A stretch of 64,000 bases of DNA, taken from positions 192,001 to 256,000 of the forward strand of contig CAVUAK010000003.1 of NCBI GenBank assembly GCA_963739455.1, given 5' to 3'. The position numbers are program-made. Source of the stretch: an uncultured Gemmatimonadales bacterium. Lineage in GTDB: Bacteria; Gemmatimonadota; Gemmatimonadetes; Gemmatimonadales; GWC2-71-9. How positions within the stretch are numbered: the stretch's first letter is position 1; each line of letters opens with the position of its first letter. Of this stretch, positions 9,001 to 63,000 are shown in pieces.

Positions 9001-12000
9001 GGGTGAGAAGCACTGACCTGATCCTGCAATATCCTGGCAGCGAGGGTGCCGCGCAGGTCAGGCGGCAAGAGCCTGATGACGTCCCTGTTGACGGTGCGGA
9101 ACTCATATTCCCGTCCGTCGGCACCAGCGAAGCGAAGCGACCGGGGCTGTATGTCTCCCGTACTGTCATGCTCGACCGGATGCAGGCCTCCGGCAAAAGT
9201 GTCAAGGTCGAGAACCTCGATCCGCATGGGAGTGGTCCAGAGATCCCGGTAGTTGCTCCCCAGCAGCCAGCGATGCAGCCAGCCGGCACCGTAGCGAGGG
9301 CCGGCAACCACCGTCGCGCTGTCTGAGACAAGAGGGGCCGGGCTTTGCGCGTACACGGGCTGCGGCGCCAGACCTTGGGTCAAGACGGCCATCAGCACGC
9401 TCAATAATGCAAAGCACCCCGGCGCCGGAGTGGCGACGGGGTGCTGCTGTTTCGACGTGGGGCTTCCAGGGATTAGAACCGCCGGAACCCACCCTGACCG
9501 GGGTTGTAAACCCGATTGATCGCGATGGCGCCGCCATGGTGCGGGGCGCAGTTGTCATCGGGCATGCGGACCATGACACCGCTGCCGCCATGTGCGATGG
9601 TCTGGATCCTCGGGGGGTCGCCGCTGCCCATGGCTACAGCCGGGATGCTCGCGACCGTCTGCCCGGGGGCGAGCGCGTGCCCACCCCCTGCATGTGATTC
9701 CGCGGGTGGCGCGGCCGGCGCGTCGGGAACGACTTCCGGTGCCGGCGCCGGAGCCAGGTCCGTCGCCACCGCAGTTTCTTCGGTGGCGTTCGGACGCGGT
9801 ACCGCTGTCTTCACCTCGGTGACCAGGTGAACCTTGCCGCGACCCTTGCTCGCGGGCTTGGTCATCGACTTGCGCTCCACCGCCGAAAGAACCAGTGGCT
9901 CCGCCGCCGGCTGCGACGCGCCCAGATTCAGGTCGCGACCCGCACCGGCGCCTGCCGAGTTGACCGCTTCACGGTCGTTGCTGCATGAAACGAGAAGCAG
10001 TGCTGCAATTGCGGCGGGAAATAGCTTGCGCATGGACCGACCCTCCCAACGAATCATTCGTACTAAGTGCATTAGCAAGAATGGGGACGTCTCGAGTCCC
10101 GCGCAAGCACACAGCCGCGCTACACCAGTCGCAAGTCAGCCTCACGCACCCGATCCGCCGCAACGTCCAAGTGGCCACACCAGTCGTCGATCGCCCGCAG
10201 CAACTCGTTCGCGACCAGGGTGAACTCCGTAGCCTTCTGGTGAAAGGTTGTGAGCCAGGCCAGGCGCTCGCACCGGGCCTCCACCACGTCGCCAGCGGCA
10301 CGCAGCGCGGACCAGGCCTCGGGTTCGAGCAGCGCGGCGAGCCCGCCGGCCGCCTCGCGTTCAGCCCGGAACCGCGGCAGGAACCGTTCCCTCAGGTACG
10401 TCACCGCACGCGCGCGATCCCACACTGTCGCCGACTCGGCGCAGGCGGGCCTGAAGGCGTGTCGGGTCTCGGCGAGCCACAGGGCATGGATGGCCGGCAT
10501 GGTGGTCATATAGCCGGCCCTCCACTCCCGATGTCACGCTGCCGCACGACGTGCCAGTTCGGACAGAACCCACAGATGCCCGTCGCTACAAAGACGAGCC
10601 CGAGCAGGGTGAGATAGCGCCACGGTACCGGCAGTGCCCCATAAAAACCGAGCAGCCCCACGCCGACGACCGTCCTGAAGATTCGTTCCAACCACCTCAT
10701 GTCCGGCGTCATATCTTGCCTCCACAGCCAATGCCCAGGACATGTTAGCACGGAGGGTATGAAGCACCGGTGGGGCCATCGTGAAGGACTATTGGGTGGA
10801 TCGCTCGCGACCGCGAGGGTCGTTGGTCTGGTGATCGCGCGCAGCTAGCGCGTCAACCGACAATGTCGACGTCGCCGGGGGCGACGACGACGTCCCCGTG
10901 GCCCTCCACCTCCACCGTGATGCGGTCGATCAGCGGATCGCTGCTGTGCCGCTGAATACGGCTGACCTCCACGATCGTGCCGGTCTTCCCGCTGACGCGG
11001 GGGACCCCCGTCTTCACGATCTTGACCGTGGTTCCCGGAATACAACGATCGATGTGCGCCATGGGCCCCTCGGATAGGAGGATCTGGGCGAAAACTCGTC
11101 TTGCGTACCTGTCAATTATATGATACATCTTTAGTGTCAAGTCAACCTGACACTAGGGGTAACGTGACGGCCTTTCCTCCCATCTCCAGCGATTCCCTGA
11201 TTTCCCCGGCACCGGTCATCCGCCCAAGGCGGCGCCGGAGGTCGGAGGCCATTCGCGGCCTGGTCCGCGAGCACCGGCTGCACCAATCGCAGCTGATTGC
11301 CCCGCTGTTCGTTTGTCACGGGCGCAACGTGCGGCGTGAGGTAGCCTCGATGCCGGGTGTCTTCCAGCTGTCGCTCGACGCGCTCGAGGCGGCGGCGGAC
11401 GGGCTGGTCGAGGCGGGAATTCAATCGGTCATCCTGTTCGGGCTGCCCGAGTTCAAGGACGACGTCGGGTCGGAAAACTTTGATCCAGAAGGGATCATCC
11501 CCCAGGCGCTGATGCGACTGAGACGCCGTCATCCCTCGCTCTGCCTCATCACCGACCTCTGTTGCTGCGAATACACCGACCACGGACACTGCGGCATCCT
11601 CCGGGGCGAGGAGGTCGACAACGACGCGACGCTCGAGATCCTGGGCCGCGCCGCTGTCGCGCACGCCGAGGCCGGTGCCGACATCGTGGCGCCGAGCGGC
11701 ATGATGGATGGGATGGTGCGCGCCATTCGCGCCGCGCTCGACGGAGCGGGACAGGCGGAGTGTGGCATCCTCAGCTATGCGGTGAAGTACGCCAGCGGCT
11801 TCTATGGACCATTCCGCGATGCCGCCGGCAGCACGCCCTCCTTCGGTGATCGCAAGCAGTACCAGATGGACCCTGCCAATGTGCGCGAGGCGATCCAGGA
11901 GGCACGGCTCGACGAAGCCGAGGGTGCCGACATGCTCATGGTGAAGCCGGCGCTTGCCTATCTCGACGTGCTCGCCACGGTGCGGCGCGAGACCACCCTT

Positions 12001-60000: not shown

Positions 60001-63000
60001 CGCGGCTGACGCCAGCGTAACCGACCCGACGCGTTAGGAAGGGCGTGGTGCAACGTATCCGGACGGGGTCCCTCGGGACCCCGTCCTTGCTATATTGCGG
60101 GCTCTTGCGGCGCCCCCGTGGTGCTGCCCGGTGACTATTCCATTGTGAGGCTACTGTATGCGATTGACTCGAAGGGGAGCCACTGTGGGCGCGGCGCTCT
60201 TTGCGCTGACAGCGATGGTGACGCTCGCCGCCTGCAGCGATGACAACAACGGGCCGACGCGCGTCTATCTGACGGGCGACTACACGGTGACTGGCCTGTG
60301 GCAGGGTGCTCCGGGCGACACGCCGAATCCGCAGCCCGTGGGTCCGGGCGCGACCGCGGTCCTCACCACCACGAACTACAACATCAACATCCCGGCCATC
60401 GAGACCGTAACTACCGGCACCTACGCGGCCTTCAGTGACGGCACCTTTACGCAGGATGGCACCGTCACCATCGCTGGCGGCGCACCGCAGGACATCCAGT
60501 GCACCGGGACGTTCACCGATGTTTCAAATGTCGTGACGGTCAACACCATCTGTCTCGGCCAGCGCACCGTGACGGTGCTCCAGCGGGACTGACGATTGCG
60601 CAGTGGGTGCGAGATGAACACGCCGCACTTCGTGGGTAACGGGCGAGGGACTTCCCTCGCCCGTGTCGCTCTGGCGCTGGGTGTCCTGCTCCTGGCTGCC
60701 TCGGGCGCCAGCGCGCAGACCGCCTCAATCAACGGCGTCGTCCGCGATGCGGAGACCGGCGTCGCCGTCGAGGGAGCGTCGGTGCAGGTCCGCGGTACGC
60801 TCCTCAGTACCGTCACCAATGGAGAGGGACAGTTTTCGCTCTCCGGTGTCCCGGTCACACCACACACCGTTCGAGTCATCGCCATCGGCTATGCGGCCGA
60901 CAGCATTCCCGGGTTGACGCTCACCGCAGGCGAGAACCGGACGCTCGCGATCTCGATGCATCGCACGCCGCTCGACCTGCAGGAGATCGTCGTCACGGCG
61001 AGCCGCCTCTCGGAGCGCCGCGCCGAGACGCCGGCGAGCGTGTCGGTGCTGCCCTTCAGCGAGATCCTCAGCCGCAATGTCACCTTCCTCAACCGGGCTC
61101 TCGAGTTCGTGCCAGGGGTGACGTTCAACGGTCCCGACCAGATGGACATCCGCGGTTCCACCGGCTTTGCGCGCGGTGTCGGGAGTCGGGTCCTCATGCT
61201 GGTGGATGGGCACCCGGCACTCACCGCCGATGGCGGCGAGATCAATTTCCGGGCGTTGCCCGTCATCGACCTCGCACGGACCGAAGTGGTGAAGGGGGCC
61301 TACTCGGCGCTGTACGGCAGCAATGCACTGGGTGGCGTGGTCAACCTGATCACCACGCCGGTGAACAGCCAGCCCACCACTTCGGCCAGGGCCAATTTCG
61401 CTGCCTATGACGTGCCGTCGGGATATCGCTGGAACGATGGACTGCTGAACTCGCAGGGGCTGGAACTGCAGCATGGACGACAGCTCGGTCCGGTGGGCGC
61501 CCGCGCGTACGTCGGGTACCAGGGCACCGACGGATACACCCAGAACGGCCAGAACCACATCTGGATGACGCGCCTCAAGTTCCAGTCGAAGCCGACGGCC
61601 GCGCACCAGTGGGATGCCTTCGCCCTCTACACCAACGAGAAGTCGCAGGAATTCCTCACTTGGCGCGCCGACAGCCTGCCATACGAGGTGTCCCCCCAGT
61701 TCCTGGGAGACTACGCCCGCGACCAGGTGTTCCTCTCGGGGGCGACGGTAGCGGCGGTGGCCACGGCGAGGACGCTGCTGAAGTTCAGCCCGTTCCTCAC
61801 CTGGAACTCGTCGCAGAACCACTTTACCGAGAACCAGGATCACCACGCCGCGATCAAGCCGGGGATGGTGGTGGCGCTCACGCAGGCCCTCAGCCCGAAG
61901 AACAGCCTCACACTGGGTGCCGACGGGGCCTTTACGTCCGTCAGCTCGAACTTCATCGGGTCGCCGCACATCGTGGACGCGGCGATGTTCGTCCAGGACG
62001 AGATGCGGTTCAGCGGCAACCTGCGGGGTGAGGCGGGCATGCGTGCCGACTATCACAACGCCAACACCGCGCTCTCGGAGTTCGTGGTGAGCCCCAAGAT
62101 CGGCGCCTCACTCCGGCTGTCGCACGCCGTCACCCTCCGCAGTTCGATCGGGGCAGGGTACCGGGCGCCCAGTGCCATCGAGCAGTTCGTGAACACCTTC
62201 CAGTTCGGCTTCCAGGTACTCCCGAACCCGACGCTGCAGGGTGAGCGTTCCTGGTCGGCGGAGGTGGGAACGAACGCGGTGCTGTGGAACAAGGTGCAGG
62301 TCGACGCCGCGGTGTTCGGGAGCCGGTACTACAACCTGATCGGCCCCTCTGCCATTCCCGGCCAGATCCCGCTCGTGTTCCAGTTCCAGAACATCTCCAA
62401 TGCGCGAGTGCTCGGCATCGACGTTGGCGCCAATGCCACGATCAATCCGCGCTGGCTCAACGTCGCGGCGACGTTCCTGTACCTGAACAGCGAGGACCTG
62501 GATACCGGTCGGCCGCTGCCATATCGGTCGAAATTCAACGTGACGGGCACCGTGACGACGCTGCAGGGTCGTGCCGGCGTCGACGTTCACTACCGGACAG
62601 TGGCGGAAGAGGTACTCGCGTTCCCGCTCGACCCACGGCAGAACATCCTCGTGTTCGATGTGCGGCTTGAGCAGAGGCTGGTGGGGGTGTTGTGGCAGTT
62701 GAAGGTGTCGAACTTGTTCAATACCTTCTACACCGATGTGCTGGAACGAAATCCGAGCGCGCCGAGGATGGTCGGGTTGACGGCAGTCTACGGTCTTTGA
62801 AGGGTCTTCTTCCCGCTTCCCGCCGTTTATAGAATCCGCAGGCCGAACGCGCTCGTAACAAGTCCCACACACAAGTCCGCAGTGCGGTTCATCGAGTCGA
62901 GTACCGGGTTGATCTCCACGATATCCATCGATACCAGCTTGCCCGCATCGGCTACCATCTCCATGGCGAGGTGTGCCTCCCGATAGGTGGCACCGCCACG

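Follow-up and report, generated by a model that had tools for sequence, protein, structure and literature searches.

In four congeners of the Gemmatimonadales bacterium G000, the repressor gene ppsR is the one gene left at the site where G000 carries an island of photosynthesis and porphyrin genes (G006, G007, G008 and, in truncated form, G002). Gene order, joins and trees indicate that six congeners probably account for three or more separate deletions of the island. We lean towards an explanation that combines haem import with repeated deletion, in which ppsR would be lost last, since it would silence the dying cluster.

The window, that is, the whole 64,000-nucleotide stretch analysed, holds the island at 11164..60009 (48,846 bp; 44 genes identified), from the GTG start of hemB to the stop of bphP, with ppsR between arms of 34.1 and 13.4 kb, as the first-pass annotation had described it. 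Its left limit coincides with the hemB start, but the hemB upstream region (11101..11159, + strand), with paired PpsR boxes at 11110-11127 and 11135-11152, belongs to the island too; a consensus promoter scan had no match there, and promoter hexamers in it would be putative. The left arm continues with hemB, hemL and hemY (11164..14907, +; NCBIfam and Pfam; sole copies in G000) and with crtB, a methyltransferase that we take from its position to be crtF, bchI, bchD, puhE, bchC, bchX, bchY and bchZ (14904..25401, +; paired PpsR boxes at 20340 and 20366). Next come bchO (25398..26384, −; TIGR03056 over cut-off), pufB, pufA, pufL, pufM and pufC (26534..30651, +), with pufM fused to a C-terminal OmpA domain as in the long PufM of G009 and G249, and bchF, bchN, bchB, bchH, bchL, bchM, acsF, lhaA, puhA (split over two ORFs), puhB and puhC (30732..44389, −). 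The gene for the B12-binding partner of PpsR, ppaA/aerR (44226..45149, +; PF02310), has PpsR-like boxes at 44174, 44190 and 44227. After it lie the leader of ppsR (45140..45235, +), a promoter only presumptively since the consensus scan had no match, and ppsR itself (45170..46648, +; beginning at 45170 or 45236; TIGR02040 score of 469.5 bits, cut-off 275.4; PDB 4HH2). The right arm consists of bchG, a pucC-type transporter gene, an FrhB-like reductase gene, bchP, crtE and tspO (46702..52724, +; PpsR box at 46690), hemA, hemC, hemD, hemE and hemF (52705..57695, +), and a BphP1-type bacteriophytochrome gene, the right limit (57751..60009, +; best PDB match 4GW9, 536.5 bits; PpsR box at 57724). 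Apart from the other sources named, these assignments are profile matches. Frame breaks occur in hemL, hemY and tspO of the G000 assembly (the hemL and hemY frames were compared with G009), and rpoB is broken likewise.

Gene content and order place the island, as predicted from sequence, among purple-type photosynthesis gene clusters in their Gemmatimonadota form: pufL (426 vs. 266), pufM (502 vs. 364) and bchH (1427 vs. 829) exceed their curated cut-offs, as do bchX, bchY, bchZ, bchL, bchN, bchB and acsF, and pufC was counted too. Integrase or transposase, tRNA target and composition do not support classification as a mobile genomic island: neither enzyme family occurs among the 58 ORFs scanned of the window, the nearest tRNA is 8 kb away, and GC is 68.5% in the island vs. 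65-66% in the flanks.

On the left the island adjoins g03543 (10853..11062, −), divergent from hemB and encoding a 69-aa hypothetical protein of an unnamed Gemmatimonadota cluster, with no Pfam match in a profile search. This gene had been regarded as a fixed border, which it is not: the deletion in G007 removed it, and it may have arrived together with the island. It also adjoins hemB in G009, G249, G096 and L062, so that island and g03543 are neighbours in another genus as well (G249, L062), and it is 68-70% identical to its counterparts in genus g13 vs. 54-56% to those of the congeners G003 and G004; it was possibly imported along with the island. On the right, a tail of about 47 bp (59991..60037, −; blastn) is what G000 retains of a gene for about 210 aa, followed by g03590 (lipoprotein-like), a TonB-dependent receptor gene and arginase (60158..63894; profile matches and synteny).

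PpsR of G000 combines PAS domains with a Fis-type helix-turn-helix, and the relics of G006, G008, G096 and G145 share these domains and a TIGR02040 score over the cut-off; the G002 relic passes the cut-off and lacks the helix-turn-helix. A scan of G000 for TGT-N12-ACA, which we take to be the PpsR box consensus, found boxes before hemB (a pair), bchC (a pair), bchF/ppaA, bchG and bphP, and four of the six strict matches in the genome lie inside the island. Outside it no conserved PpsR-type site was found save one palindrome that spans an ArsR-like gene's start and is more likely to be the operator of that gene. Rhodobacter PpsR/CrtJ has a redox- and haem-binding cysteine in the DNA-binding domain; this domain has no cysteine in the g1 PpsR proteins and has one in two proteobacterial outgroups. 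The phytochrome of the cluster lacks a kinase domain, and the genome encodes a haem oxygenase, which makes PpsR and the phytochrome a candidate light switch of the BphP1-PpsR2 kind; PpsR2 pairs with BphP1.

All genomes compared are bins. In G006 and G008 the order is arginase (94-95%), TonB receptor (80-84%), g03590 (49-51%), ppsR (an open frame of 501 codons, 83-84% to G000) and g03543 (91%), ppsR being the island's sole gene at the site; pufLM, hemB and bchH are absent from both whole genomes. Distances from arginase to omp85 (53.4 kb in G000, 10.1 kb in G006, 11.1 kb in G008 and 9.8 kb in G007) were reproduced. The first-pass annotation had g03543 and g03590 separated by ppsR alone; ppsR is indeed the sole island gene between them, but the minus-strand ORF of about 210 aa also stands before g03590. 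It is whole in G006, G007, G008 and G009 and absent from G000 and G002, and its G006 copy has no Pfam match.

The joins differ, as had been claimed: in G006 and G002 the hemB upstream region is fused to ppsR, whereas G008 and G007 retain the leader of ppsR. Public reads of two studies span both joins of G006, one run covering the left and two the right. These complementary island scraps argue for deletion, because only an ancestor with both explains them. Independent loss does not follow from differing joins by themselves, as G002 and G006 may have one old left join in common (third positions group the two at 81%); that claim rests on the tree test. The AU test, run on 17.6k codons of the flanks, rejects a clade of all four relics (p = 0.001), a clade of G006, G007 and G008 (p = 0.009) and a clade of both island carriers (p = 4e-6). 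A single common loss is thus rejected, and at least three losses are probable. Relic PpsRs cluster with cluster-bearing kin (g1 clade, 100/99; G096 and L080 with L059 and L060, 100/100), and joins, trees and synteny in g13 together bear out the earlier claim that the relic genomes are former carriers which deleted both arms more than once. That ppsR was there first, the island having formed about it in G000 and G009 through two insertions, is scarcely credible: the ppsR gene tree is unresolved within the subclade, but the complementary scraps, the same gene order beside g03543 in g13, the island carriers not forming a clade and the usual place of ppsR, with ppaA and bchG on either side in most of the 74 loci (of 80 surveyed) that have photosynthesis genes, all speak against it.

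Loss of phototrophy and of porphyrin synthesis had been called one event. This is borne out in part: the hem genes went with the island in G006, G007 and G008, but elsewhere loss is staged: G096 and G216 retain hem genes around ppsR, and L062 lacks the left arm alone. All three of these partial relics, with hem or bch genes, also have ppsR. The genomes thus form a natural series of whole island, one arm lost, hem-only operon, lone repressor and truncated repressor. The gene has been relocated into another gene run in G010 and adjoins a haem oxygenase gene, at which no PpsR boxes were found, in L080 and G145. Across the family sample, ppsR occurs in 11/251 genomes and bchH in 6/251, so that 5/11 have ppsR without bchH.

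The island encodes the eight-gene C5 pathway from glutamate to protoporphyrin IX, its only copy in G000. No ferrochelatase was found after hemF or elsewhere in this genome, nor in the phototrophs G009 and G002; haem synthesis was therefore probably impossible in the clade before the island was lost. The search for iron insertion covered HemH, CbiX/SirB, ChdC and AhbD, leaving out CbiK, and in the clade gave CbiX in 0/5 genomes, ChdC in 0/5 and AhbD below cut-off in 5/5. Ferrochelatase was found in 2/12 congeners; G004 is a phototroph that has one. Of the near-complete family genomes that have hemB, 4/5 phototrophs vs. 2/92 others lack hemH. Haem users are present, with haem-copper oxidases in 5/5 genomes and cytochrome c assembly genes in 5/5 of a different set, which together amounts to a predicted signature of haem auxotrophy. 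Neither hemB nor hemH occurs in 89/251 family genomes, and since close non-phototrophic kin without hemB retain haem enzymes, the clade is evidently able to live without making haem. The island hem genes would then probably feed bacteriochlorophyll only, in cells importing haem. Alternatively, the phototrophs do make haem from island protoporphyrin, using a ferrochelatase of unknown family or one missing from the assemblies. Genomes that are bins leave room for this, as does the lack of a convincing haem importer among the systems examined: the flanking TonB receptor has TonB-hemin as its best family (134 bits vs. a cut-off of 317), and the sole FecCD-type ABC system looks B12-like. We nevertheless consider it unlikely, because five phototrophs from three genera lack ferrochelatase, with completeness at 97-99% for four of these genomes, and because the kin without hemB still have haem enzymes.

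Selection on ppsR is graded. Its dN/dS is 0.022 and 0.045 in islands and 0.052 (G008), 0.077 (G006), 0.18 (G002), 0.20 (G007) and 0.29 (G010) in relics, beside 0.05-0.12 for flank genes of six lineages that do not include G010. For G006 and G008, extra change does not differ between invariant and variable sites, as expected under neutrality, and both agree with a recent onset of neutral decay (about 0.015-0.03 changes per site; 55-80% chance of zero stop codons). G006 carries radical changes at invariant sites; against a conspecific strain, the differences listed are 12 non-synonymous and 10 synonymous (n = 22), rejecting a dN/dS of 0.1 (p ~ 2e-4), with pN/pS about 0.5, not 1. These two relics were said to have kept the regulator; the frame is open, but it looks near-neutral. 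The orphan gene is, by its substitution pattern, still constrained in G096, L080 and G145 and partly in G007 and G010, where invariant residues are spared (dN at invariant/variable sites: G007, 0.108/0.346; G010, 0.099/0.216; G096, 0.016/0.085; L080, 0.016/0.108; G145 likewise, 8/167). No known PpsR target lies near the gene in G007, G010, L080 or G145.

The explanation we favour starts from an old photosynthesis cluster that brings its own supply of porphyrin, in cells that would import haem, in which case the hem genes serve bacteriochlorophyll only and are useless once the photosystem is. With the antirepressors PpaA and BphP gone, PpsR would hold the hemB, bchC, bchF, bchG and bphP promoters shut. 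Losing ppsR while its targets remain would switch on porphyrin synthesis with no iron branch as a drain; if such derepression is harmful, deletions that spare ppsR survive, trimming the island up to its edges. Strains that are ppsR-null are unstable, a premise on which our literature search found no paper. Once the last target had gone, selection would relax and ppsR decay (G006, G008, G002, G007, G010); where hem genes are still useful (G096, G216), it would stay under selection in a shortened hem operon. It would count against this explanation if G002 and G006 had their left join in common, since selection on G006 ppsR would then have stayed strong for a long time after loss of the left arm.

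The main rival to silencing of a dying cluster is a lasting new role: PpsR would have been co-opted outside photosynthesis, for porphyrin or haem sensing or for host genes, its faster evolution reflecting lost contact surfaces for PpaA and BphP. Of the eight join ends flanking ppsR, seven are no further than about 100 bp from the gene ends, with hardly any other scrap, and an upstream region was kept every time; this precise trimming runs against the silencing explanation and fits selection on ppsR after all targets had gone, and the spared invariant residues of G007, G010, G096, L080 and G145 weigh the same way. The DNA-binding region is the best- or second-best-kept part of PpsR in G006, G007, G008 and G010 (78-95%), and the relocation in G010 and the haem oxygenase neighbour in L080 and G145 would also suit a new role. 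We still judge co-option somewhat unlikely, given the single dubious palindrome outside the island, the box-free haem oxygenase gene, the missing cysteine, the lost DNA-binding domain of G002 and the radical changes and pN/pS of G006. Very unlikely, in our view, is chance through deletion mechanics, with a separate microhomology-guided deletion of each arm ending at the ppsR borders and ppsR neutral from the start. A short common motif at the left join of G006, and perhaps of G002, is consistent with it, as are the near-neutral relics of G006 and G008; but ppsR, and none other of the 44 genes, was left in 4/4 informative genomes here and in three other genera, with differing joins, and the clear constraint on the older relics largely contradicts it.

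This natural series of phototrophy loss makes a general idea testable, that repressors are discarded only once their targets are gone, and orphan ppsR marks former phototrophs. To our knowledge, usually only the gain of phototrophy by transfer is discussed in Gemmatimonadota. We tentatively entertain a bolder picture, which we would not yet back: phototrophs unable to make haem, importing even that of the reaction-centre cytochrome and using cluster porphyrins for bacteriochlorophyll only, with PpsR outlasting the cluster and domesticated outside photosynthesis in several lineages. Phototrophs needing external haem would alter the view of the haem/bacteriochlorophyll branch point, and haem suggests itself as a simple supplement for culturing these bacteria. 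Neither ppsR outlasting its cluster nor phototrophs needing haem was found described in a literature search that reached few subscription papers.

Among known systems, the cluster of Gemmatimonas phototrophica and related bins, in the accessible text of PMC8547001, PMC7844134 and PMC11406998, has in common with the island convergent bchFNBHLM and bchCXYZ-puf, ppaA-ppsR (the ppaA-ppsR-bchG order of G000 being as described in PMC8547001), an frhB-like gene in the bchG-bchP operon and hem genes beside the cluster. In contrast, the G000 cluster is enclosed by the genome's only pathway to protoporphyrin IX, PufM is fused to OmpA, relatives display stages of loss, and hemH, present in G. phototrophica, has no counterpart found in G000. 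In that species, the same text of PMC11406998 indicates, PpsR exerts little visible control on the cluster, a point against the silencing explanation. PpsR/CrtJ systems (TIGR02040; R. sphaeroides PpsR, PDB 4HH2) share domain order, the PpaA/AerR neighbour, TGT-N12-ACA boxes before hem, bch and bphP genes and a BphP1-type phytochrome (PDB 4GW9) in the cluster, but here the DNA-binding domain has no cysteine and ppsR is an orphan in 11 genomes or loci, or sits in a hem-only operon. Citromicrobium JLT1363 likewise has conserved flanks around a whole cluster replaced by a single gene, not named in the available part of PMC12654162; here the leftover is the repressor, loss recurred, and dN/dS allows it to be graded. 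Finally, haem auxotrophy in aquatic bacteria (Kim et al. 2021, as cited in PMC12381374) also pairs haem enzymes with an absent pathway, whereas the putative auxotrophs here include phototrophs with every step but iron insertion.

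The purple-type photosynthesis cluster lies at window positions 11164 to 60009 according to family scans of 58 ORFs chosen by codon score and length, and these are the limits that the first-pass annotation had set for the island. Its left part reads hemB, hemL, hemY, crtB, a methyltransferase gene, bchID, puhE, bchCXYZ, bchO and pufBALMC. Next comes a minus-strand block of bchFNBHLM, acsF, lhaA, a two-part puhA, puhB and puhC, then ppaA, ppsR, bchG, a pucC-type gene, an FrhB-like gene, bchP, crtE and tspO, and at the right end hemA, hemC, hemD, hemE, hemF and a phytochrome gene (bphP) whose product has BphP1 as its nearest solved structure. 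The hem genes are the sole copies in the genome under study (G000), GC content is 68.5% in the island versus 65-66% outside, and no integrase was found among the 58 scanned ORFs. Its nearest relatives among database records are Gemmatimonadales bins. The island is real and well bounded, and its component parts are already known.

PufM (27974-29395) carries a fused C-terminal OmpA (peptidoglycan-binding) domain, a long form also seen in G009 and G249; the fusion may tether the reaction centre to the cell wall. The reaction-centre H subunit (31857-32599) is split over two ORFs of 67 and 180 aa, as in G002, G003, G032 and G249. Frame breaks in hemL and hemY (12162-14907) and tspO (52145-52724), together with those elsewhere in G000 in rpoB, an oxidase subunit and an M16 peptidase, are probably assembly indels. 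An ARAGORN tRNA-Arg call inside bchZ (24222-24292) was taken as spurious. The same gene order recurs in records titled planctomycete and actinomycete bin (L181, L195), labels that are possibly binning or labelling errors, and three betaproteobacterial loci (L182, L189, L194) have a second ppsR-like match after bchP.

Among the 12 genomes of the genus, a strong PpsR match was found in nine, pufL/M in five and hemB in the same five. G009 carries the island at the same site with ~90% identity, whereas G006, G007 and G008 keep ppsR there as the lone island gene, and ppsR at the site in G002 ends at residue 404. The first-pass annotation had likewise placed an island in G009 and a truncated ppsR in G002, and its synteny distances and identities were reproduced. 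The joins of G006 are spanned by public contigs from two studies; no RNA data set was listed as holding this relic (a site with ppsR and no cluster). In G005 the arginase neighbourhood was the sole part seen, no such site turned up in G001 (77% complete, 250 contigs), and the G011 region lacks the TonB receptor, ppsR and both flank genes, g03590 and g03543. ppsR of G010 (L157; G010:C8:18699-20096) is relocated between two genes that are neighbours in G000, and starts directly 3' of the upstream gene's stop.

The joins themselves record how the relics arose. In G006 and G002 the region upstream of hemB, paired boxes included, is fused to the 5' end of ppsR; in G008 and G007 that region is gone and ppsR keeps its own leader, and G007 additionally lacks g03543. 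The right joins differ among all four relics. Because 34 kb separates the two pieces in G000, the ancestor carried both, and these complementary scraps bear out the earlier proposal of deletion; assembly of the island by insertion around a pre-existing ppsR is highly improbable. The same island adjoins g03543 in genus g13 (G249), and in L062 it lies beside g03543 with its left arm mostly missing. In a 33-row protein tree, from which a second G216 fragment was omitted, relic PpsRs group with those of cluster-bearing kin, always on longer branches. Two weak matches were seen 3' of ppsR: a bphP-like scrap in G008 (alignment score 39, equalled by 3 of 200 shuffles) and a hemC-like match in G145 (31%).

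We counted losses on a tree of flank genes (17.6k codons from seven genomes, only 1.7k of them contributed by G002), from which ten doubtful rows (antisense, paralogous) were removed before analysis. A preliminary flank tree was poorly resolved, and rpoB was dropped as a marker because it was complete in too few genomes. AU tests with 5000 replicates, a number below that advised by the program, rejected a single clade of the four relics (p = 0.001), a clade of G006, G007 and G008 (p = 0.009) and a clade of the two island carriers (p = 4e-6); a grouping of G006 with G008 was not rejected (p = 0.38). If inheritance was vertical, the sequences argue for at least three losses at the site, and the rejection of one relic clade upholds the earlier claim that the loss happened more than once. 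A simple count is complicated by G002 and G006, which may have their left join in common and which form a group at third codon positions (81%); possible causes are recombination between congeners and a single older deletion. Further separate losses were found in genera g13, g8 and g76.

The G000 island matches genus g13 mostly at 70-80%, versus 55-73% for most genes in congeners G003 and G004, and g03543 is likewise closer to g13; to judge from these identities, island and flank gene may have been imported together. G002 has a second, distant cluster of the G003/G004 type on G002:C41 (L105, L047, L041, L048), either an ancestral retention or a regain, flanked by genes that adjoin one another in six relatives. 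The corresponding site is empty, with no scraps, in G000 (C3 ~426970-427040; L254), G006, G007, G008, G009 and G010, and the idea that orphan ppsR served the second cluster in trans was therefore rejected, except that it could fit G002. hemB of the second cluster shares only 51-55% identity with every other copy compared. An M16 peptidase gene lies beside this cluster, adjoins the G096 and L080 relics, and is found inside the G004 cluster.

Orphan ppsR extends beyond the genus. In one family sample of 251 genomes, 11 have ppsR and six have bchH; pufL/M are absent as well from G096, G145 and G216. Six of the best 80 among 531 PpsR loci had no photosynthesis gene in the DNA examined; another locus set gave four of 31, plus one spurious match. 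The 11 orphan or hem-only cases are G002 (which holds another cluster), G006, G008, G007 and G010 (these two only 60-64% complete), G096, G145, G216, and L080, L173 and L211, the last three classed as orphan from locus DNA only. The G096 relic is g03543-hemB-hemL-ppsR-hemC and provides the three genes missing from an operon elsewhere, hemA-hemD-hemE-hemY-hemH. G216 has hemB-hemL-hemY-ppsR and ppsR-hemC-hemD-hemE-hemF at two contig ends; its hemA and hemH lie in other parts of the genome. Thus, photosynthesis can go while porphyrin genes and ppsR remain.

Ferrochelatase (PF00762) occurs in 2 of the 12 congeners and was not found in G000, G009 (97% complete, one 3.5-Mb contig) or G002 (99%); tblastn of four HemH proteins on G000 gave no match. 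CbiX and ChdC were each found in none of five genomes, and the best AhbD score was 90 bits against a cut-off of 500. Haem-copper oxidases were present in five of five genomes (G000, G006, G008, G011, G096), as were cytochrome c assembly genes (G000, G002, G006, G008, G009). The simplest inference is an island pathway that stops at protoporphyrin IX, which then receives magnesium, in cells that import their haem; a haem receptor or importer was sought and no candidate could be assigned. A pathway that serves the magnesium branch would explain why, in this clade, the hem genes disappear together with the photosystem. The earlier claim that phototrophy and porphyrin synthesis were lost in one event is partly supported: the hem genes went with the island in G006, G007 and G008, but G096 and G216 kept hem genes. 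Haem oxygenase was found in 9 of 12 congeners (C1:922075-922674 in G000; L240) and not in the two with ferrochelatase, and no PpsR boxes were found at its gene.

Across the family sample, hemH was present in 145 of 251 genomes, hemB in 150 and neither in 89; many members of the family may therefore be haem auxotrophs, although incomplete bins inflate the count. Among hemB-positive genomes at least 90% complete (n = 97), hemH was missing in 4/5 phototrophs versus 2/92 others (Fisher p = 2e-5, overstated as kin from three genera are not independent). Five genomes marked unpublished (G025, G078, G143, G194, G244) are included in these tallies and support nothing else stated here.

Branch codon models gave dN/dS of 0.022 and 0.045 for island ppsR copies and 0.05-0.12 for flank genes (six lineages). 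Relic copies gave 0.052 (G008), 0.077 (G006), 0.18 (G002), 0.20 (G007) and 0.29 (G010). With ppsR sites classed by invariance in outside PpsRs, excess change was equal in both classes (about 0.015 in G008 and 0.03 in G006), as a short neutral period would give, in which case the open frame of these two is unremarkable. Between G006 and a related strain, the 22 differences listed for the ppsR core comprise 12 non-synonymous and 10 synonymous; dN/dS of 0.1 was rejected, and neutrality was not (p about 0.09). Of the first-pass claim that the regulator was kept, the open frame stands, but the change in G006 and G008 fits neutrality over a short period. Sequence comparison suggests that ppsR is partly constrained in G007 and G010 and clearly so in G096, L080 and G145.

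PpsR-type boxes, predicted from the consensus, lie upstream of hemB, bchC, bchF/ppaA, bchG and bphP, and four of the six strict matches in the whole G000 genome are inside the island. In sigma-70 scans, neither hemB nor ppsR showed a consensus promoter. The sole conserved strict match outside, at C3:134226 (L219, L220, L221), is a perfect 18-bp palindrome fitting the PpsR consensus in four congeners (G000, G006, G008, G009), which do not have the remaining outside matches in common. It overlaps the start of an ArsR-like gene, is probably the operator of that gene, and was rejected as a PpsR target.

We lean slightly towards selection on PpsR as the off-switch of a decaying cluster. With PpaA and BphP gone, PpsR would repress constitutively; its loss would release porphyrin synthesis, presumably toxic, with no iron branch to draw the product off, and deletions would therefore approach ppsR from both sides. 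The gene would decay only afterwards and persist where hem genes persist. Purple bacteria null for ppsR are unstable, although a literature search for such instability found no account. A lasting new role for PpsR would suit the tight trimming around the gene and the constrained older orphans, but boxes outside the island are missing, as is the cysteine in the DNA-binding domain, and the G002 protein lacks that domain altogether; we regard this role as possible but doubtful. Chance retention of ppsR, to which the neutral change in G006 and G008 would be congenial and the constraint in G096, L080 and G145 would not, is improbable.

Neither the way in which the cluster was lost nor the apparent dependence on haem seems to have been described so far. 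The passages retrieved mention neither a ppsR that was retained repeatedly nor ferrochelatase-free phototrophs; an orphan ppsR or a missing hemH might already be visible in supplementary gene tables. Related passages appear in PMC10581226, PMC11651109, PMC3679898, PMC4263372 and PMC12381374. The Gemmatimonadota cluster has been described, and in the excerpts concerned G. phototrophica has hemH, and its ppsR exerts weak visible control (PMC11406998, PMC8547001, PMC7844134). In a Citromicrobium strain, the excerpted account reports a cluster replaced by one gene, not named there (PMC12654162).
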